A stretch of 64,000 bases of DNA from Escherichia coli (GTDB lineage: Bacteria > Pseudomonadota > Gammaproteobacteria > Enterobacterales > Enterobacteriaceae), in assembly GCF_024223415.1 (NCBI RefSeq), contig NZ_CP100500.1; one strand, 5' to 3'. Position numbers and translations under genes: made by a program. Position 1 is the stretch's first letter, and every line of letters begins with the position of its first letter. Positions 34,283 to 46,067 of this stretch are shown here, piece by piece. The notes under the pieces are model-generated. The model saw nothing but the letters and a program-made list of their open reading frames with translations. It was not told where the DNA came from and made no database searches.

Positions 34283-34879
34283 ATGATTAAGGTGTATGGC
34301 GTACCCGGATGGGGCTCTACAATCAGTGAGCTGATGCTAACACTGGCTGATATTCCTTATCAGTTCGTTGATGTCAGTGGTTTTGACCACGAGGGAGCTT
34401 CACGCGAGTTATTGAAAACCCTGAACCCGTTGTGTCAGGTTCCGACACTGGCATTGGAAAATGACGAGATTATGACGGAGACAGCGGCGATTGCATTGAT
34501 GGTTCTCGATCGTCGCCCGGACCTTGCGCCACCGGTTGGGCGCGCCGAACGTCAGCAGTTTCAACGGCTATTGGTCTGGCTGGTTGCTAATGTCTATCCA
34601 ACATTCACTTTCGCCGATTACCCTGAGCGTTGGGCTCCTGACGCACCCGAACAGTTAAAGAAGAATGTTATTGAATATCGTAAATCGCTTTATATCTGGC
34701 TGAATTCACAATTGACCCCTGAACCTTATGCGTTTGGTGAGCAACTAACGCTGGTGGACTGTTATCTTTGCACTATGCGCACATGGGGCCTGGGCATGAA
34801 TGGTTTCAGGATAATGCCACGAATATCAGTGCGATTGCTGATGCTGTATGTCAGTTACCGAAATTACAAGAAGTATTAA
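34283..34879 (+). CDS. yncG: glutathione S-transferase homolog
   Basis: 198-aa ORF with GST N-terminal thioredoxin-like fold; exact start uncertain. Confidence 0.8.
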   Translation: MIKVYGVPGWGSTISELMLTLADIPYQFVDVSGFDHEGASRELLKTLNPLCQVPTLALENDEIMTETAAIALMVLDRRPDLAPPVGRAERQQFQRLLVWLVANVYPTFTFADYPERWAPDAPEQLKKNVIEYRKSLYIWLNSQLTPEPYAFGEQLTLVDCYLCTMRTWGLGMNGFRIMPRISVRLLMLYVSYRNYKKY

Positions 34880-35187: not shown

Positions 35188-36006
35188 AAGGATAAATGGC
35201 GTTCTCTGTATTTATTCGCAATTATCTGTAGGACAAATATGGAGAGCTTGATGAGTCAGAGCTAAAACAGCAATTGATTAATAAACATGTTGATTTATTC
35301 AAGAAAATGGATGTATTTTAAATATTGATTCTTAATATAACCTAATCAATAGATTATCACGTGAGAGCTGCACATTATTGGAGGGGCAGGGGAAAACACC
35401 ATTTTGGGAACAATGCATCAGGTACTCTTACCACTGAAGCAAGATCATCCGGGCACCAGGTGGTGGTGCAGTGCTTTGGAAATGGTCCCCTCGGGGGAGT
35501 TGTCATTATTTTCTATGCTATTTGCTTATGATATTCATCAGGTGAATTTAATAAATTCCTAATTTGAAATATCCACTATTAAGCCAGTGTTTAACGACGT
35601 TAAGATGGCAATGTGCAGATCATGTTATCAGGGTGGGGCGGTAGCGTATATTCCTTATACAAATCATCATTCATTTCAATGATTGTTATTAAATTATTTA
35701 TTGTTGTGAATAAAAAGACATTATGAATATTGGTTTAACTTTGCATATCAGGTTTTTTATTACTCGCTGTAATGTACGAGCCTGTCGTGAATAACGTCCA
35801 GAACCCATCCGTTGCGTTTGTGATTATTTTGTTGACTAAACAGACGCCCGTTTCTCTGAAGTAAAATCCCAGACTAAATCATCACATAACCATGACATTT
35901 TCTGATATTCCCCGGTAACGCCAGTTGTCGACTCACTTATTTCATCCGCCCGACATGTTGTACATGCAATATGTGCGGATTATTATTCATTTTCACGGAG
36001 GTTGCT

Positions 36007-38115
36007 ATGTCAACCGGATTACGTTTCACGCTGGAAGTGGACGGCCTGCCACCGGACGCGTTTGCGGTGGTCTCCTTTCATCTGAACCAGTCACTCTCTT
36101 CACTTTTTTCCCTCGACCTTTCTCTGGTCAGTCAGCAGTTTCTTTCCCTTGAATTTGCGCAGGTGCTGGACAAAATGGCCTACCTGACGGTATGGCAGGG
36201 CGATGACGTACAGCGCCGGGTGAAAGGTGTGGTGACCTGGTTTGAACTGGGGGAGAACGACAAAAACCAGATGCTGTACAGCATGAAGGTGTGCCCGCCG
36301 CTGTGGCGCACAGGGCTGCGCCAGAACTTCCGTATCTTCCAGAATGAGGACATCGAAAGCATCCTCGCTACGATATTGCAGGAAAACGGGGTGACCGAGT
36401 GGAGTCCGCTGTTCAGCGAGCCGCATCCTTCCCGTGAGTTTTGTGTCCAGTACGGCGAAACCGATTACGATTTCCTGTGCCGGATGGCGGCGGAGGAAGG
36501 CATCTTCTTTTATGAGGAGCACGCGCAAAAAAGTACCGACCAAAGCCTGGTCCTGTGCGATACCGTGCGTTATCTGCCGGAGTCCTTTGAGATCCCCTGG
36601 AATCCGAACACCCGTACCGAGGTAAGCACCCTCTGCATCAGCCAGTTTCGCTACAGCGCACAAATCCGCCCTTCTTCCGTGGTGACCAAAGACTACACCT
36701 TTAAACGCCCCGGCTGGGCCGGACGTTTTGACCAGGAAGGCCAGCACCAGGATTACCAGCGCACACAGTATGAAGTGTATGACTATCCCGGACGTTTCAA
36801 GGGCGCCCACGGGCAGAACTTTGCCCGCTGGCAGATGGACGGCTGGCGAAACAACGCAGAAGTGGCGCGCGGAACAAGCCGTTCGCCGGAGATATGGCCG
36901 GGACGGCGAATTGTGCTGACGGGGCATCCGCAGGCGAACCTGAACCGGGAATGGCAGGTGGTGGCAAGTGAACTGCACGGTGAGCAGCCGCAGGCGGTGC
37001 CGGGACGCAGTGGTTCAGGTACCTCGCTGAATAACCACTTTGCGGTAATCCCGGCAGACCGGACATGGCGGCCACAGCCGTTGCTGAAACCGCTGGTGGA
37101 CGGCCCGCAGAGCGCCGTCGTGACGGGACCGGCAGGCGAGGAAATCTTCTGTGATGAACATGGCCGCGTGCGGGTGAAATTTAACTGGGACCGCTATAAC
37201 CCGTCAAACCAGGACAGTTCATGCTGGATCCGTGTGGCACAGGCGTGGGCAGGCACCGGATTCGGTAACCTTGCGATACCGCGCGTGGGTCAGGAGGTGA
37301 TTGTGGACTTCCTCAACGGCGATCCGGACCAGCCGATCATTATGGGGCGCACCTACCACCAGGAAAACCGCACACCCGGCAGCCTGCCGGGAACAAAGAC
37401 GCAGATGACCATTCGTTCGAAAACCTATAAGGGCAGCGGGTTTAATGAACTGAAGTTTGACGATGCGACAGGGAAAGAACAGGTCTACATCCACGCGCAG
37501 AAGAACATGAACACCGAGGTGCTGAATAACCGCACCACGGATGTGATAAACAACCATGCTGAGACCATTGGCAACAATCAGATGATTGCGGTTACCAACA
37601 ATCAGATACAGACGGTGGGCGTTAACCAGATAGAGACGGTGGGCAGTAACCAGATCATTAACGTGGGTTCTGTTCAGGTGGAAACGATTGGACTTGTTCG
37701 TGCGCTGACCGTGGGCGTGGCGTACCAGACGACGGTAGGTGGCATTATGAACACTTCGGTGGCTCTGATGCAGTCCTCGCAGATCGGTTTGCATAAATCT
37801 TTGAGGGTCGGGCTGGGTTATGACGTCAAAGTCGGAAATAACGTTACCTTCACCGTTGGTAAAACGAAAAAGGATGATACCGGGCAGACCGCGATTTACT
37901 CCGCCGGTGAGCATCTGGAGCTCTGCTGTGGTAAGGCAAAGCTGGTGCTGACAAAGGACGGTCAAATTTTTCTCAACGGCACAAAAATTCATTTGCAGGG
38001 TAAGGAGCAGGTTAATGGTGACTCACTGTTGATTAACTGGAACTGTGCAGCCTCGAAATCCCCACCGAAGACCCCTGATGAAAAGCAGGATACGCCGGAT
38101 ATGAGAGAGTACTGA
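36007..38115 (+). CDS. vgrG: type VI secretion spike protein VgrG
   Basis: ATG 36007 after GGAGG; 702 aa; gp27-like N-terminus (MSTGLRFTLEVDGLPPDAFAVVSFHLNQSLSSLFSLDLSLVS) and gp5-like beta-helical repeats (VINNHAETIGNNQMIAVTNNQIQTVGVNQIETVGSNQIINVGSVQVETIG). Confidence 0.9.
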   Translation: MSTGLRFTLEVDGLPPDAFAVVSFHLNQSLSSLFSLDLSLVSQQFLSLEFAQVLDKMAYLTVWQGDDVQRRVKGVVTWFELGENDKNQMLYSMKVCPPLWRTGLRQNFRIFQNEDIESILATILQENGVTEWSPLFSEPHPSREFCVQYGETDYDFLCRMAAEEGIFFYEEHAQKSTDQSLVLCDTVRYLPESFEIPWNPNTRTEVSTLCISQFRYSAQIRPSSVVTKDYTFKRPGWAGRFDQEGQHQDYQRTQYEVYDYPGRFKGAHGQNFARWQMDGWRNNAEVARGTSRSPEIWPGRRIVLTGHPQANLNREWQVVASELHGEQPQAVPGRSGSGTSLNNHFAVIPADRTWRPQPLLKPLVDGPQSAVVTGPAGEEIFCDEHGRVRVKFNWDRYNPSNQDSSCWIRVAQAWAGTGFGNLAIPRVGQEVIVDFLNGDPDQPIIMGRTYHQENRTPGSLPGTKTQMTIRSKTYKGSGFNELKFDDATGKEQVYIHAQKNMNTEVLNNRTTDVINNHAETIGNNQMIAVTNNQIQTVGVNQIETVGSNQIINVGSVQVETIGLVRALTVGVAYQTTVGGIMNTSVALMQSSQIGLHKSLRVGLGYDVKVGNNVTFTVGKTKKDDTGQTAIYSAGEHLELCCGKAKLVLTKDGQIFLNGTKIHLQGKEQVNGDSLLINWNCAASKSPPKTPDEKQDTPDMREY

Positions 38116-38181
38116 TCCCGTACCTGTTCGGTATTCAGTAACAAACAAGCATTAAAAATAAACAGAAGAAGGAATTGAATC

Positions 38182-41100
38182 ATGAGCGGAAAACCAGCGG
38201 CGCGTCAGGGAGATATGACTCAGTATGGCGGTCCCATTGTCCAGGGTTCGGCAGGTGTAAGAATTGGCGCGCCCACCGGCGTGGCGTGCTCGGTGTGTCC
38301 GGGCGGGATGACCTCGGGCAACCCGGTAAATCCGCTGCTGGGGGCGAAGGTGCTGCCCGGCGAGACGGACCTTGCGCTGCCCGGCCCGCTGCCGTTCATT
38401 CTCTCCCGCACCTACAGCAGCTACCGGACGAAGACGCCTGCGCCGGTGGGGATTTTTGGCCCCGGCTGGAAAGCGCCTTCTGATATCCGCTTACAGCTAC
38501 ATGATGACGGACTGATACTCAACGACAACGGCGGGCGGAGCATTCACTTTGAGCCGCTGCTGCCGGGGGAGGCGGTGTACAGCCGCAGCGAGTCAATGTG
38601 GCTGGTGCGCGGTGGTAAGGCAGCGCAGCCGGACGGCCACACGCTGGCGCGGCTGTGGGGGGCGCTGCCGCCGGATATCCGGTTAAGCCCGCATCTTTAC
38701 CTGGCGACCAACAGCGCACAGGGGCCGTGGTGGATACTGGGGTGGTCAGAGCGGGTGCCGGGTGCTGAGGACGTACTGCCAGCGCCGCTGCCGCCGTACC
38801 GGGTGCTTACCGGGCTGGCAGACCGTTTCGGGCGGACGCTGACGTACCGGCGTGAGGCCGCAGGCGACCTGGCCGGGGAAATCACCGGCGTGACGGACGG
38901 TGCCGGGCGTGAGTTCCGTCTGGTACTGACCACACAGGCACAGCGGGCGGAAGAGGCCCGCACCTCTTCGCTATCTTCTTCTGACAGTTCCCGCCCTCTC
39001 TCAGCCTCAGCGTTCCCCGACACACTGCCCGGTACCGAATACGGCCCCGACAGGGGTATCCGTCTTTCAGCGGTGTGGCTGATGCACGACCCGGCATACC
39101 CGGAGAATCTGCCCGGTGCGCCACTGGCGCGGTACACGTATACGGAAGCCGGTGAACTGCTGGCGGTATATGACCGCAGCAATACGCAGGTGCGCGCTTT
39201 CACGTATGACGCGCAGCACCCGGGCCGGATGGTGGCGCACCGTTACGCGGGAAGGCCGGAGATGCGCTACCGCTACGACGATACCGGGCGGGTGGTGGAG
39301 CAGCTGAACCCGGCAGGCCTGAGTTACCGCTACCAGTATGAGCAGGACCGCATCACCGTCACGGATAGCCTGAACCGGCGTGAGGTGCTGCATACAGAAG
39401 GCGGGGCCGGGCTGAAGCGGGTGGTGAAAAAAGAACTGGCGGACGGCAGCGTCACGCACAGCGGGTATGACGCGGCAGGAAGGCTCACGGCGCAGACGGA
39501 CGCGGCGGGACGGCGGACAGAGTACGGTCTGAATGTGGTGTCCGGCGATATCACGGACATCACCACACCGGACGGGCGGGAGACGAAATTTTACTATAAC
39601 GACGGGAACCAGCTGACGGCGGTGGTGTCCCCGGACGGGCTGGAGAGCCGCCGGGCATATGATGAACCGGGCAGGCTGGTATCGGAGACATCGCGCAGCG
39701 GGGAGACAGTACGCTACCGCTACGATGATGCGTACAGTGAGTTACCGGCGACGACAACAGATGCGACGGGCAGCACCCGGCAGATGACCTGGAGCCGCTA
39801 CGGTCAGTTGCTGGCGTTCACCGACTGCTCGGGCTACCAGACCCGCTATGAATACGACCGCTTCGGCCAGATGACGGCGGTCCACCGCGAGGAAGGCATC
39901 AGCCTTTACCGCCGCTATGACAACCGTGGCCGGTTAATCTCGGTGAAAGACGCACAGGGCCATGAAACGCGGTATGAGTACAACGCCGCAGGCGACCTGA
40001 CTGCCGTCATTACCCCGGACGGCAACCGGAGCGAGACACAGTACGATGCGTGGGGAAAGGCGGTCAGCACCACGCAGGGCGGGCTGACGCGCAGTATGGA
40101 GTACGATGCTGCCGGACGTGTCATCAGCCTGACCAACGAGAACGGCAGCCGGAGTGAGTTTACCTACGATGCGCTGGACCGCCTGGTACAGCAGGGCGGC
40201 TTTGACGGGCGGACGCAGCGTTACCGTTATGACCTGACCGGAAAACTCACGCAGAGTGAAGATGAGGGGCTTGTCATCCTCTGGTACTACGATGAATCGG
40301 ACCGTATCACTCACCGCACGGTGAACGGCGAACCGGCAGAGCAGTGGCAGTATGATGGCCACGGCTGGCTGAGAGAAATCAGCCACCTGAGCGAAGGCCA
40401 CCGTGTTGCCGTCCACTATGGCTATGACGATAAAGGCCGCCTGACCGGCGAACGCCAGACGGTGGAGAACCCGGAGACGGGGGAACTGCTGTGGCAGCAT
40501 GAGACGAAACACGCATACAACGAGCAGGGGCTGGCAAACCGCGTCACGCCGGACAGCCTGCCGCCGGTGGAGTGGCTGACGTATGGCAGCGGTTACCTGG
40601 CGGGAATGAAGCTGGGCGGGACGCCGCTGGTCGAGTATACGCGGGACAGGCTGCACCGGGAGACGGTGCGCAGCTTCGGCAATAATGCATATGAACTGAC
40701 CAGCACTTACACCCCCGCAGGCCAGTTACAGAGCCAGCACCTGAACAGCCTGGTGTATGACCGTGACTACGGGTGGAATGACAACGGCGACCTGGTGCGC
40801 ATCAGCGGTCCGCGACAGACGCGGGAATACGGCTACAGCGCCACGGGCAGGCTGGAGAGTGTGCGCACCCTCGCACCGGACCTGGACATCCGCATCCCGT
40901 ATGCCACGGACCCGGCGGGCAACCGGCTGCCGGACCCGGAGCTGCACCCGGACAGTACACTCACAGTGTGGCCGGATAACCGAATCACCGAAGACGCGCA
41001 CTACCTGTACCGTTACGATGAATACGGCAGGCTGACGGAGAAGACGGACCGCATCCCGACGGGTGTGATACGGACGGACGACGAGCGGACCCACCACTAC

Positions 41101-42387
41101 CACTACGACAGCCAGCACCGCCTGGTGTTCTACACGCGGATACAGCATGAGGAGCCACTGGTCGAGAGCCGCTACCTCTACGACCCGCTGGGACGGCGAA
41201 TGGCAAAACGGGTCTGGCGGCGGGAGCGTGACCTGACGGGGTGGATGTCGCTGTCGCGTAAACCGGAGGAGACATGGTACGGGTGGGACGGCGACAGGCT
41301 GACGACGGTGCAGACTGACACCACACGTATCCAGACGGTCTACCAGCCGGGGAGCTTCACGCCGCTCATCCGTATCGAGACAGAGAACGGCGAACGGGAG
41401 AAAATGCAGCGCCGCAGCCTGGCGGAGAAGCTGCAGCAGGAAGGAAGTGAGGACGGTCACGGTGTGGTGTTCCCGGCTGAGCTGGTGAGGATGCTGGACA
41501 GGCTGGAGGAAGAAATCCGGGCAAACTGCGTGAGCAGTGAAAGCCGCCAGTGGCTTGCGCAGTGCGGGCTGACGGTGGAGCGGCTGGCGGCACAGATAGA
41601 GCCGGTTTATTTGCCTGAGCGAAAAATACATCTTTATCACTGTGACCACCGGGGCCTGCCGCTGGCGCTTATCAGTGAAGACGGCAATACGGCGTGGCGC
41701 GGGGAGTATGATGAATGGGGCAACCAGCTTAATGAAGAGAACCCGTATTACCTGCACCAGCCATACCGTCTGCCGGGGCAGCAGCATGATGAGGAATCAG
41801 GGCTGTACTATAACCGGAACCGGTACTATGACCCGCTACAGGGGAGGTATATTACACAAGACCCCATTGGGCTGGAGGGGGGATGGAACCTGTACCAATA
41901 TCCGCTGAATCCAGTGCAACACGTTGATCCATTAGGGCTTAGTACTATGATAATAGGTAACGGCCCCGTTCCTGATAATCCTTTTGGGCATGCTGCGGCG
42001 GCAAATCGATATGGATTAATGAGTTCGGGAACTGGGGATGAGATGGGAGCCTCTGTCTCTGATTATTTTAAAAAGATGCAACCCCGCAGAGATACCTGGA
42101 TTTGGATAATAGATACAACAGATGAAGAAGAACAATGTATGATGAATAAGGCAATAGACCTTAATAAAAAACTAAAAACTATTAACCTCGGGCCTCTTCC
42201 TGTTTTAAATAATTGTTTTAGCCGAACGAACATGATTTTTGAGGCGTGCGGGTTTAACAACCCCTCTATGAATACAAATGCGCCTATAAGCCTACAAGTG
42301 CTCGGTGAGCTTTATGGATATCAAAGATATATTATGCCTAAAGGTCCTTTCACTGGATTCCCATTTGAATTTCAAGAGGTAAAGTAA
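38182..42387 (+). CDS. rhsE: PAAR-domain Rhs polymorphic toxin (T6SS effector), 1401 aa
   Basis: N-terminal [31 protein letters not shown] (PAAR motif); many YD repeats ([30 protein letters not shown]...); Rhs core terminating at PxxxxDPLGL (ends 41940); gene symbol assigned by synteny only. Confidence 0.9.
41941..42387 (+). other. Rhs C-terminal variable toxin domain (about 148 aa), family not recognised
   Basis: Begins immediately after DPLGL; base composition switches from GC-rich core to AT-rich; sequence [25 protein letters not shown]...[19 protein letters not shown]... has no motif I can assign. Confidence 0.75.
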
Positions 42388-42786
42388 ATGGAAATGCTTG
42401 GGAAGATATTAGTGATAATTATTTCCATGATAATTATATCTTGTGATTATTATAATGCTGGCATGGACTATCAAGATAATATAGCCCTCGAGCAAGTCGT
42501 AACATGGGATTCTGATAATATATTCACACCTAATATCTTTGAACATAATGGAAGATGTTTTATGAAGAAAAATGAAACATGGATGTTATTAAATGGAGAT
42601 GCAACACCAAACATTAGAACAATGAGCAATAAGAAAATAGAATGCCTGGAGAAGAGTGAAGTAGAATGGGCTAGTAGGGTTTGCGACAGTATCACAGACA
42701 AGGAAAGGGAAAATCTGAAGGCATTAATATGTAGCAAACCAGCTAAATCAGTTAATACAGGCAAAAGACCAGCGTTAGGATATTGA
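42388..42786 (+). CDS. probable Rhs immunity protein (132 aa, lipoprotein-like)
   Basis: ATG directly abuts rhs stop (TAA-ATG); AT-rich; N-terminal hydrophobic stretch ending in lipobox-like IISC. Confidence 0.7.
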   Translation: MEMLGKILVIIISMIIISCDYYNAGMDYQDNIALEQVVTWDSDNIFTPNIFEHNGRCFMKKNETWMLLNGDATPNIRTMSNKKIECLEKSEVEWASRVCDSITDKERENLKALICSKPAKSVNTGKRPALGY

Positions 42787-43229
42787 AACCGGCACTGCAC
42801 TCTATCACTATTACAATATTCTGAGTGACTAGAGCAACTGCTCCGCCATCCGGGCTAGCAGTATGACGACGAATCCGAACTGCACTACAACTGGCACCGG
42901 TACTACAATCCGGGACAGGGACCAGGGAAAGATCACGGTGTGCCGTAGGCACAAAGATGCAAAACGGGACGTTTTGCATGTAATAAGCATAAGCTTGTGA
43001 AGAGATGGTGGCAGGCCCACCGGGATCTGCTGTCGGAAGTCGGTCCCAAACAACCCCGGCTGCTGTGGTAAAGAGCCAAGGTAGTGAGCGCAGGGGGAAC
43101 GATCAGACGAGATCTGATCCTGTGTGAGATACAGTGAGATGAGTAAACCCGAACCTGTGTTGAAACGTCGTTAGTCCTAAGTGACATCAAAACCGGAGGT
43201 TTCGTGATACCGCCTGGATTAATTTACGG

Positions 43230-44725
43230 GTGAATTCCGAATGCTGCGTAAATGGTGTCCGGCGTATAGCAGGCATGACGCTGTATCAGGCTCTTTGCAG
43301 GAACTACGGGAACCAGTCGTCGCAATGTCAAGAGAGAAATACAAATAACCGAAATTATGAGTATGAGAGTATCGATGTGCGAAACCGGGGCAGAGCTGTT
43401 CGTAGTAGTGAGGAAGCGTTTGTAATGAATGTGGAGCGAAGGGGCAACGTCGGGCAGTCTGCATCACAGCCCAACTGTAAACAGGAGGAGGCTGCGGGTG
43501 AACAGACAAAACCGTTTCAGGTCAGTAAATTGCATGTGGTGGAAGCGTACCGTCGGGTAAAGGCGAATGCCGGAGCTGCCGGAGTGGATAACCAGACGCT
43601 GAAAGATTTTGAGCGGGATCTGAAAGGAAATCTGTACAAAATCTGGAACAGGTTATCGTCGGGAAGCTGGATGCCGCCGCCAGTGCGTGCGGTGGAAATT
43701 CCGAAGAAGGATGGCAGTAAAAGGCTTTTAGGAATACCGACAGTAAGCGATCGAATAGCGCAGATGACGGTGCTGGTAACGTTTGAACCATTAGTGGAGC
43801 GTTATTTCCTGAATGATTCATACGGATACCGGCATGGAAAATCAGCGCTGGATGCAATAGCAGTTACCAGAAAACGTTGCTGGCAATACGACTGGTGTCT
43901 TGAGTTTGATATTAAAGGGTTATTCGATAATATCCCCCACGATTTATTACTCAGGGCAGTGGATAAACATTGCGCGGATAAATGGGTAAGACTGTATATT
44001 CGCAGGTGGCTGACAGCGCCGGTGCAGATGCCGGATGGAACACTGAAGGAAAGAAATAAAGGTACGCCACAGGGTGGAGTCATCAGTCCGGTACTGGCGA
44101 ATTTATTTCTGCACTATGTGTTTGATAAATGGCTGTCGTTACATTATCCGGAAATTCCCTGGTGTCGTTATGCAGATGATGGATTAATTCATTGTGGCAG
44201 TAAACAACAGGCAGAGGAATTACTGAATAAACTGGCAAAACGTTTTCAGGAATGTGGACTGGAATTACATCCGGAGAAAACGAAAATAGTTTACTGCAAA
44301 GACAGCTAACGACAGGCGAACCACGAAACAGTGCAGTTTGATTTTCTGGGTTATACGTTCAGGGCGAGAAGAGCACGTAATCAGCGAAGTGGAAATCTCT
44401 TTACGAGTTTCAGTCCGGCGGTGAGTAACAGTGCGCAGAAAGGCATGATCGAAAAACTCAGGAAACTGCGGCTCAGACGCAGGGTGGAGATGAGTCTCGA
44501 AGATATTGCGAAAAGGCTGAATCCGATGATATCGGGGTGGCTGAATTATTACGCGAAATACCACAAAGATATATTAATCTGACGCTGATTGCGTGGGCGA
44601 GAAAGAAATATAAAACCCTGCGGTATAGAAAGACGAAGGCGTGTCAGCTAATGGAAAGGCTGTCAAAAGAGAAGCCGGAGTTGTTTGCCCACTGGAATGC
44701 AGGACCGGAAAGCGCGTTTGCCTGA
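43230..44725 (+). pseudogene. group II intron-encoded reverse transcriptase/maturase, split over three frames
   Basis: 43230-44309 has RT motifs (RLLGIPTVSDRIAQMTVL, PQGGVISPVLANLFLHYV, CRYADDGLIHC); maturase continues in 44331-44582 (FDFLGYTFRARRARNQRSG...GWLNYYAKYH) and 44537-44725 (IAWARKKYKTL...LFAHW), so there are at least two frame disruptions. Confidence 0.75.
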
Positions 44726-44728
44726 CGG

Positions 44729-44762
44729 GAGCCGTATGAAGCGAGAGTTTCACGTACGGTTC
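44729..44762 (+). ncRNA. group II intron ribozyme domain V
   Basis: GAGCCGTATGAAGCGAGAGTTTCACGTACGGTTC fits the domain V consensus (GAGCCGUAUG...ACGUACGGUUC) with catalytic AGC triad. Confidence 0.8.
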
Positions 44763-44945
44763 TGCGAGAGGCTGTCGGGGAGGTTCCGGTGGCCTACTCA
44801 CTTAACGCTGCTTTTTTGTACTAAATAATTCGCATTTTATGTTTAAAAATTGAGATATTCCCCATTACCTAAAGCTGTTTTTTATTGCTTATACATGATC
44901 AAATACTCCTTACATAATTAAGGAGAACAAAATGGAATTAAAAAA

Positions 44946-46067
44946 TTGATGGAACATATTTCTGTTATCCCCGATTACAGACAAGCCTGGAAAGTGGAAC
45001 ATAAATTATCGGATATTCTACTGTTGACTATTTGTGCCGTTATTTCTGGTGCAGAAGGTTGGGAAGATATAGAGGATTTTGGGGAAACACATCTCGATTT
45101 TTTGAAGCAATATGGTGATTTTGAAAATGGTATTCCTGTTCACGATACCATTGCCAGAGTTGTATCCTGTATCAGTCCTGCAAAATTTCACGAGTGCTTT
45201 ATTAACTGGATGCGTGACTGCCATTCTTCAGATGATAAAGACGTCATTGCAATTGATGGAATAACGCTCCGGCACTCTTATGATAAGAGTCGTCGCAGGG
45301 GAGCGATTCATGTCATTAGTGCGTTCTCAACAATGCACAGTCTGGTCCTCGGACAGATCAGGACGGATGAGAAATCTAATGAGATTACAGCTATTCCTGA
45401 ACTTCTTAACATGATGGATATTAAAGGAAAAATCATCACAACTGATGCGATGGGTTGCCAGAAAGATATTGCAGAAAAGATACAAAAACAGGGAGGGGAT
45501 TATTTATTCGCTGTAAAGGGAAATCAGGGGCGACTAAATAAAGCCTTTGAGGAAAAATTCCCGCTGAAAGAATTAAATAATCCAGAGCATGACAGTTACG
45601 CAATCAGTGAAAAGAGTCACGGCAGAGAAGAAATCCGTCTTCATATTGTTTACGATGTCCCTGATGAACTTATTGATTTCACGTTTGAATGGAAAGGGCT
45701 GAAGAAATTATGCGTGGCAGTCTCCTTTCGGTCCATAATAGCAGAACAAAAGAAAGAGCCAAAAATGACGGTCAGATATTATATCAGTTCTGCTGATTTA
45801 ACCGCAGAGAAGTTCGCCACAGCAATCCGAAACCACTGGCACGTGGAGAATAAGCTGCACTGGCGTCTGGACGTGGTAATGAATGAAGACGACTGCAAAA
45901 TAAGAAGAGGAAATGCAGCAGAATTATTTTCAGGGATACGGCACATTGCTATTAATATTTTGACGAATGATAAGGTATTCAAGGCAGGGTTAAGACGTAA
46001 GATGCGAAAAGCAGCCATGGACAGAAACTATCTGGCGTCAGTCCTTGCGGGGAGCGGGCTTTCGTAA
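44946..46067 (+). CDS. ydcC: H-repeat-associated ISAs1-family transposase
   Basis: 373-aa ORF ([45 protein letters not shown]...) typical of H-rpt/ISAs1 transposases found in Rhs elements; start codon (TTG 44946 or ATG 44949) uncertain. Confidence 0.85.

Follow-up and report, generated by a model that had tools for sequence, protein, structure and literature searches.

What is a complete set of genes for a type VI secretion system (T6SS) effector doing at a locus that is degenerate in Escherichia coli K-12, with no secretion apparatus encoded around it? We addressed this question for a 64,000-nt stretch of E. coli contig NZ_CP100500.1 (assembly GCF_024223415.1; hereafter the window), in which three intact, tightly linked genes on the + strand, vgrG, rhs and a gene for a partner protein, are flanked by yncH and an ISAs1 element. 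An earlier note on this DNA had read them as an orphan module composed of a full VgrG spike gene, an Rhs effector gene and an abutting immunity gene. The open reading frames (ORFs) are present exactly as it gave them, at 35971–38115 (714 residues), 38182–42387 (1401 residues) and 42388–42786 (132 residues), with 66 bp between vgrG and rhs and with the partner ORF beginning at the base right after the rhs stop codon. We consider it quite probable that they form, at the rhsE locus, an intact VgrG–Rhs–immunity effector module that belongs to the E. coli aspV 'T6SS2' and carries a toxin tip acting in the periplasm.

Judged by its neighbours, the site is the rhsE locus: yncD/pqqU, yncE, ansP, yncG and yncH lie on one side of the module, and ydcC (ISAs1), pptA, yddH, nhoA and narZYWV on the other. 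A vgrG–rhsE arrangement at the same chromosomal locus has been reported for enterohaemorrhagic E. coli EDL933 (the vgrG2-rhsE island). Alignment to K-12 rhsE and to other E. coli strains bore out the earlier description of the K-12 locus as degenerate. K-12 is collinear with the window up to position 35939, ∼67 bp before the vgrG start, and collinearity resumes at ∼40390, within rhs near codon 730; a clean deletion of 4.45 kb has taken out vgrG and the first ∼730 codons, the 5′ half, of rhs. The part of the rhs core that survives in K-12 shows 90% protein identity and diverges fully past the DPxGL motif at the end of the core. At least 80% of the module was present in 2596 of 5426 complete E. 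coli genomes (∼48%), with at least 99% identity in 15 of these. Identical VgrG and partner proteins are encoded on hundreds of public contigs, and the exact Rhs protein is deposited as WP_254539422.1. As the earlier note had stated, the window holds no tss or hcp gene, according to annotation transferred from E. coli O78 strain 3, which is 99.9% identical to and collinear with window positions 1–62799; the last ∼1.2 kb (62800–64000) was read solely from the size of its ORFs and from the order of genes in K-12.

The first gene of the module encodes a full VgrG (TssI) spike protein. Its product matched TIGR03361 from end to end (629 bits against a cut-off of 186, positions 1–512 of 513, E = 5e-189) and carries the Pfam domains Phage_GPD, Phage_base_V (the gp5 OB domain) and Gp5_trimer_C (trimerisation). 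The longest ORF opens at 35971, and the probable start is M13 at 36007, which has a GGAGG sequence 6 nt upstream and is the start called by PGAP in near-identical genomes. The gene would thus span 36007–38115 (+) and encode 702 residues.

Similarly, the 1401-residue Rhs protein (38182–42387, +) is encoded by an uninterrupted ORF and comprises a short N-terminal fragment, a YD-repeat shell, an autoprotease plug and a toxin tip. Residues 1–1253 matched the NF041261 RHS_core model with 2744 bits (cut-off 2000). Within this core we identified the DUF6531 N-terminal plug at residues 46–123 (38317–38550, +; PF20148, E = 1e-17), which is homologous to the N-terminal plug of Tse5, at least 15 RHS repeats, an RHS domain and TIGR03696 (Rhs_assc_core) at residues 1176–1253. 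The core closes with the aspartyl autoprotease motif DPIGL-x18-DPLGL at residues 1227–1253 (41860–41940, +), in which DPIGL begins at 1227 and the core-end motif occupies 1244–1253, placing the boundary between core and tip after L1253. A DPXGX18DPXG motif is known from Tse5 and other Rhs proteins, and the protein as a whole has the make-up of an Rhs/YD-shell polymorphic toxin. The same boundary is visible in the base composition, as the GC content breaks from 0.61–0.68 in the rhs core to 0.37 in the tip, and it is where identity to K-12 stops. Furthermore, the tip is found with its co-varying partner on different Rhs cores, and homologous partners stand beside related tips. The shell, the DPLGL motif and the variable tip with its abutting partner gene were thus all read correctly from the DNA in the earlier note. 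At the junction of core and tip there is also a sigma-70-like hexamer pair (TTGATC-16-TATGAT, 41924–41951, +), which could drive an internal transcript of tip and partner.

The N-terminus of Rhs required a more careful reading, as the earlier note had described it as a PAAR motif. The letters P-A-A-R are indeed present at residues 5–8, in an N-terminus that has just 45 residues ahead of the DUF6531 plug, but they belong to a single PAAR-like repeat (residues 2–29; 38185–38268, +) and not to a full PAAR domain. Residues 2–29 align solely with the third of the three repeats in solved PAAR proteins (residues 67–93 of 93 in 4jiv_D, E = 0.008; also 4jiw, 8gra and 9rce), and the Pfam PAAR_motif model was matched by residues 3–20 at model positions 52–69 of 70 (E = 0.28). 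A genuine PAAR fused to Tox-Act1, used as a positive control, matched positions 1–56 of this model (E = 4e-4). We therefore rejected a canonical PAAR domain (PF05488; three repeats, ∼90 residues), as there is one repeat only. The prePAAR type served by Eag chaperones (AARxxDxxxH motif, transmembrane helices, split PAAR, DUF1795 eagR) was rejected as well: Tyr replaces the motif His, no hydrophobic or transmembrane segment precedes the plug, and no ORF that could be eagR lies between vgrG and rhs.

What the N-terminus does resemble is the short fragment of the Tse5 type, with ∼47 residues followed by a PVNP plug, an adjacent vgrG and no transmembrane segment. Cleavage of Tse5 takes place at the bond joining residues 47 and 48, and its 5-kDa "PAAR-like" N-terminal fragment is required for secretion through the adjacent VgrG1c. 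The alignment pairs P48VNP of our Rhs with the first residue of the Tse5 shell chain (8cp6_B, which begins at the equivalent PVNP), and we predict cleavage at N47/P48 (38322|38323, +), which would release a 47-residue fragment containing the single repeat. A search for homologs of this N-terminus returned nearly exclusively near-identical enterobacterial Rhs fragments, so that little diversity was seen. By analogy with Tse5, the fragment would act like a PAAR adaptor. As a single repeat makes up one third of the PAAR cone and the VgrG tip is three-fold symmetric, it could dock asymmetrically or as three Rhs proteins per spike.

Which T6SS could fire such a module? We read the T6SS content in close relatives rather than in the source genome itself, namely O78 strain 3, KV7 and SCU-316, whose modules are 99.3–100% identical to the one studied here. 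In O78 strain 3 and KV7, the two closest complete genomes, a single T6SS cluster lies between tRNA-aspV and yafV, 1.45 Mb from the module, in agreement with the earlier view of an orphan that needs a T6SS elsewhere. This cluster contains tssB, tssC, tssE, tssF, tssG, tagH, tssJ, tssK, tssL, tssH, vasI, tssA, tssM, a gene with a vasL domain, two hcp genes and an hcp-vgrG-rhs set of its own. The two vgrG-rhs sets are closely related. Our VgrG is 90% identical to that of the aspV cluster in close relatives, with the differences mostly in the last ∼180 residues, and the 47-residue N-terminus recurs in the Rhs that related genomes encode inside the cluster (76% identity over 200 residues). According to a review's account of Ma et al. 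(2017b), E. coli 'PAAR-Rhs-CT' effectors are exported by the aspV T6SS2, and killing depends on T6SS2 and ClpV2. As far as that account describes these effectors, our module shares their core family, N-terminus and vgrG-rhs-immunity order, whereas its tip differs from Rhs-CT1 to Rhs-CT10 (metallopeptidase, DNase, RNase and similar) and was not identified among those described there.

The cassette of tip and partner is not confined to rhsE. Strain 19KM1831 carries the same pair on the in-cluster hcp-vgrG-rhs set, PCN033 has it in its aspV island on a second RHS gene with a frameshift, and in strain 2013C-4282 it occupies the rhsE locus. Its presence on Rhs genes at both aspV and rhsE shows that cassettes are exchanged between these loci. 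Counted on its own, the cassette occurs in 566 of 5426 complete E. coli genomes (∼10%), labelled 'hypothetical' throughout.

The state of the T6SS in the relatives complicates this picture. A 23-bp deletion at codon 324 of the 360 codons of tssG, which removes the last 36 residues, is common to O78 strain 3, KV7 and SCU-316, and hence to at least three independent assemblies; in addition, the vasL-domain gene is frameshifted in O78 strain 3 and KV7, and tssM contains a stop in O78 strain 3. We found the full-length, 1083-bp tssG in ∼2100 other genomes, and 20 of 2123 genomes were at least 99% identical to the deletion allele. To look for a second T6SS, we ran a sensitive search for divergent copies of tssC. 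This search, which does detect divergent second systems in other genomes, returned one tssC each in the module-bearing genomes listed, KV7 and O78 strain 3 not being among them. As tssG is truncated in the only T6SS of the closest relatives, the module may be silent in this lineage. In that case it would be a cassette reservoir for recombination, as the earlier note had offered as an alternative, or would be kept because the partner protects against kin that still shoot the toxin. Movement of the cassette between Rhs loci and the AT-rich DNA upstream of vgrG (GC content 0.35–0.37) are consistent with this. On the other hand, all three ORFs are intact, every residue invariant in the tip family is kept, and the same T6SS has a full-length tssG in the ∼2100 other genomes. 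The damaged T6SS thus lends the reservoir alternative some support and the intact ORFs speak against it, and we regard the idea that the module is not fired in this lineage as possible but rather doubtful.

We turned to the tip for clues to what the module would deliver. The tip (148 residues, 1254–1401; 41941–42384, +) had no match in Pfam, NCBIfam or the PDB sequences. An exhaustive HMMER search with it retrieved 167 representative clusters at E ≤ 1e-3, and among 50 sequences that were read and trimmed (proteins of 150–2489 residues, many with Rhs/teneurin-like shells) the match mostly lay at the extreme C-terminus. In an alignment of 38 sequences, a His (tip H17, H1270; 41989–41991, +) and a Cys (tip C92, C1345; 42214–42216, +) are invariant and are the candidate catalytic residues. 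The other invariant positions are N13 (N1266), G16 (G1269), S28 (S1281), G30 (G1283), R50 (R1303) and P115 (P1368). All these positions belong to the motifs NPFGH, S-x-G, R[DN] and DNCxxR[TS], all of which are retained in this Rhs.

An AlphaFold2 model of the tip, built from the 38-sequence alignment (pLDDT 92.5, pTM 0.87), placed the Cys at the N-terminus of a helix and the His on a strand. Structural comparison gave the highest scores for YiiX (2if6; 10.4) and the Vibrio cholerae T6SS effector TseH (6v98; 10.0), followed by a C92 cysteine peptidase (3kw0; 9.0) and the MARTX RID acyltransferase (5xn7; 7.6). PPPDE, PLAAT and other papain-like folds scored lower. Foldseek returned nothing significant from the PDB. 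Against AFDB50, its nearest non-Rhs folds were proteins with the DUF4105/Lnb N-terminal periplasmic domain (E = 4e-12 to 1e-5, TM-score up to 0.84), in agreement with a weak hint at the sequence level: the DUF4105/Lnb_N Pfam model (PF13387) had no match in the tip itself, but in the set of 38 family members three matched it at E ≤ 0.1, the best of them at 3e-3. On the basis of the model, we confidently assign the tip to the circularly permuted NlpC/P60 hydrolases, in which the His precedes the Cys. We also considered Tox-HDC (PF15656; Zhang et al. 2012) and rejected it, since that model was matched by none of the 38 family members and not by the tip either; the letters of its signature (H, D, C) are compatible with the tip, and a distant link is possible.

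For the likely substrate, a comparison with Tox-Act1 is informative. This permuted NlpC/P60 toxin of the Salmonella SPI-6 T6SS has DUF4105/Lnb as its sister group and TseH as a further relative (Nicastro et al., PLoS Biol 2026). Tox-Act1 is toxic in the periplasm only, needs H43 and C151, cleaves phosphatidylglycerol and phosphatidylethanolamine to lysophospholipids and is neutralised by a two-transmembrane protein; intoxicated cells lyse with an intact sacculus, and among the tabulated homologs there is one Rhs fusion from E. coli (Nicastro et al. 2026). TseH, which also has phospholipase activity, likewise acts in the periplasm and depends on His and Cys. Lnb functions as an N-acyltransferase of lipoproteins. 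To compare the tip with Tox-Act1, we derived the Tox-Act1 motifs from the published mutagenesis primers and took five Tox-Act1-type genes with their two-transmembrane partners from five enterobacterial genomes.

The tip is like Tox-Act1 in its predicted permuted fold, its His…Asn-Cys core, its kinship to DUF4105/Lnb and TseH, its lack of a Pfam family, its link to a T6SS and its partner, which is predicted to be membrane-located. The two differ in the spacing of His and Cys (75 in the tip and 68–91 across its family, versus 108), in their motifs (NPFGH and DNCxxR[TS] versus TDAGHA and GNNCTTH), in the partner (a predicted lipoprotein versus the two-transmembrane Imm-Act1) and in presentation, as the tip is caged by Rhs whereas Tox-Act1 is standalone or fused to PAAR. 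Membership in the Tox-Act1 family was rejected: the profile of the tip family against the five Tox-Act1-type genes gave ∼5 bits with HMMER and 0.2% with hhalign, and in the profile alignment the N-N-C motif alone was aligned. A cross-match of accessions between the members of the tip family and the Nicastro homolog table produced no overlap. Rhs proteins bearing the tip were found with 1401, 1406 and 1409 residues, and none with the 1422 residues that were sought. At the level of these profiles, the tip is a superfamily relative of Tox-Act1 but not a demonstrable family member, and its substrate is therefore extrapolated from the fold alone. The distance from TseH (6v98) and YiiX (2if6) is similarly large, with 7–9% sequence identity to the tip and no HMMER or Pfam link; unlike the Rhs-borne tip, TseH is a standalone effector and YiiX a housekeeping protein.

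With these relatives in mind, the modelled tip probably represents an unnamed branch of envelope-attacking, lipid-cleaving cysteine hydrolases. A classical NlpC/P60 activity, i.e. a peptidoglycan amidase or endopeptidase that cuts cell-wall peptides in the periplasm, as was first proposed for TseH, would be compatible with the superfamily. It appears unlikely, given that the His-before-Cys order marks the permuted branch, which has been linked to lipid substrates, that cells intoxicated by Tox-Act1 lyse although their sacculus stays intact, and that the nearest AFDB folds are acyltransferase-type DUF4105/Lnb domains. More speculatively, the permuted NlpC/P60 toxins that are caged by Rhs could be a family of their own, founded by this tip and represented by 167 clusters (50% identity) from Proteobacteria and other phyla, with a substrate unlike that of Tox-Act1, for example the acyl chains of lipoproteins in a reversal of the Lnb reaction, and with an inner-membrane-retained lipoprotein serving as decoy or active-site plug for neutralisation; we put this forward only tentatively, as a rather improbable reading.

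The partner gene offers a second, separate indication of where the toxin would act. This putative immunity gene (42388–42786, +; 132 residues) abuts the rhs stop, has GAGG upstream and encodes a protein without a Pfam family or any other family in a profile library scan; one UniProt entry calls it 'Lipoprotein'. The N-terminus reads MEMLGKILVIIISMIIIS|C19-D20, with the lipobox IIS|C19 of a bacterial lipoprotein and Asp at position +2. In E. coli, Asp at +2 is the signal that retains lipoproteins in the inner membrane. We therefore predict that the partner is a lipoprotein retained in the inner membrane, which points to toxin action in the periplasm. A homologous partner that also starts with Cys-Asp follows a 60%-identical toxin in a metagenome (…ITG|C-D), and another lies on the same Salmonella contig as an 84%-identical toxin. 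Downstream of five distant members of the tip family, we found non-homologous lipoproteins, signal-anchored proteins or small two-transmembrane proteins, so that exported or membrane partners, homologous or analogous, follow all seven members examined. As a control, we inspected four partners of unrelated E. coli Rhs tips, and three of them also had signal-like N-termini. The argument from exported partners is thus weak on its own and not specific to this family.

The partners of unrelated Rhs tips that begin with signal-like hydrophobic segments are YdcD of K-12, a protein with TPR repeats and one from PCN033, a hint that neutralisation outside the cytoplasm may be common among E. coli Rhs tips.

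The location of the partner also bears on the proposal that the Rhs protein is exported or acts independently of a T6SS, for example within the cell as one half of a toxin–antitoxin-like pair, as for a Salmonella Rhs orphan. Such behaviour of Salmonella RHS elements is reported in PMC7043789, and the promoter-like site at the core/tip junction (41924–41951) could allow separate expression of tip and partner. Nevertheless, a lipoprotein partner of the periplasmic type cannot neutralise a toxin in the cytoplasm, and our scan for promoters and terminators gave 10 promoter-like sites compared with 5.6 ± 2.2 in shuffled sequence, which is not clearly above chance. Since the tight linkage to vgrG and the Tse5-type N-terminus favour loading onto a T6SS as well, we think this explanation very unlikely.

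Taken as an effector of the aspV T6SS2, the module would work as follows. A VgrG trimer would form the spike of the T6SS encoded elsewhere in the genome, and Rhs would bind this spike through its 47-residue N-terminus with one PAAR-like repeat, as Pseudomonas Tse5 does with its adjacent VgrG. The YD-repeat shell would enclose the 148-residue tip, and the DPxG-x18-DPxG aspartyl protease plug would free it after L1253. Once fired into a neighbouring cell, the tip would act on the periplasmic side of the envelope through the His1270/Cys1345 dyad, most probably by stripping acyl chains from membrane phospholipids or lipoproteins, like its superfamily relatives Tox-Act1, TseH, YiiX and Lnb. The co-transcribed lipoprotein would protect the producer from the periplasmic face of the inner membrane, where the Asp at +2 predicts that it is anchored.

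The Tse5-like N-terminus, the aspV T6SS of the relatives and the occurrence of the same tip on an in-cluster Rhs all agree with the architecture that the earlier note had proposed, in which an Rhs effector is linked to VgrG, delivered by a T6SS and accompanied by its cognate partner at a distance from the core T6SS genes. Several of the results given above weigh against the model as a whole: the lesions in tssG, the vasL-domain gene and tssM of the relatives, the presence of one PAAR repeat instead of three, the empty PDB search with the tip model, the missing profile link to Tox-Act1 and the signal-like N-termini of the control partners.

The P. aeruginosa VgrG1c–Tse5–Tsi5 system provides a close parallel. 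It has the same vgrG-rhs-immunity order, the 47-residue N-terminal fragment followed by a PVNP plug and a DPxG-x18/19-DPxG autoprotease, and the Tse5 shell is the best sequence match of our Rhs in the PDB (E = 2e-15). An envelope-acting tip combined with a membrane-associated immunity protein is a further likeness, predicted in our case. There are also differences: the Tse5 N-terminus has no literal P-A-A-R, the Tse5 tip is a pore former and not an enzyme, and Tsi5 has two transmembrane segments where our partner is a predicted lipoprotein.

Three further elements follow the partner gene. The first, a 73-bp segment (42865–42937, +), translates into a sequence (…DDESELHYNWHRYYNPGQG…) that resembles the last conserved stretch of the Rhs core; it seems to be what is left of the 3′ end of an rhs gene that was displaced, and now forms the 5′ flank of a group II intron. 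The intron (42938–44810, +; 3′ end approximate) was recognised by the Rfam models RF01999 (D1–D4; 43007–43122, 93.9 bits) and RF00029 (D5/D6; 44727–44802, 62.8 bits). Its degenerate reverse-transcriptase ORF (43230–44309 onward) matched TIGR04416 with E = 2e-105 but is truncated and contains an internal stop; in 2013C-4282, an unbroken ORF of 1323 bp occupies this site, and K-12 has no group II intron here. The Rhs element is closed by an ISAs1-family transposase gene (H-repeat ydcC; 44946–46067, +; NF033564, E = 9e-123), which is 97% identical to the ydcC region of K-12.

Two further features of the window were recorded in passing. On the other side of the module, yncG (34283–34879, +) encodes 198 residues compared with 205 in K-12, and PGAP calls a frameshift in O78 strain 3. 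Between narU and yddG, annotation transfer placed an espR1 gene for a leucine-rich-repeat type III secretion effector, a leucine-rich-repeat pseudogene and an OmpC-family porin gene (∼57708–59700 and 60455–61555, both on the − strand).

As a type, the module is ordinary, since VgrG-linked Rhs effectors at rhsE are common and have been described before. What is new is the 'PAAR' that consists of a single repeat, an annotation for a tip and a partner so far labelled 'hypothetical', and a possibly disabled T6SS in the nearest relatives. The tip is probably a cysteine hydrolase that targets lipids in the periplasm and is countered by a lipoprotein, and would add an Rhs-caged relative to the group of Tox-Act1 and TseH. 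It would also go against the common assumption that the toxins inside Rhs cages act in the cytoplasm. Finally, the coexistence of an intact module and a damaged T6SS in one lineage offers a natural way of testing whether immunity or recombination, rather than attack, keeps such modules in place.

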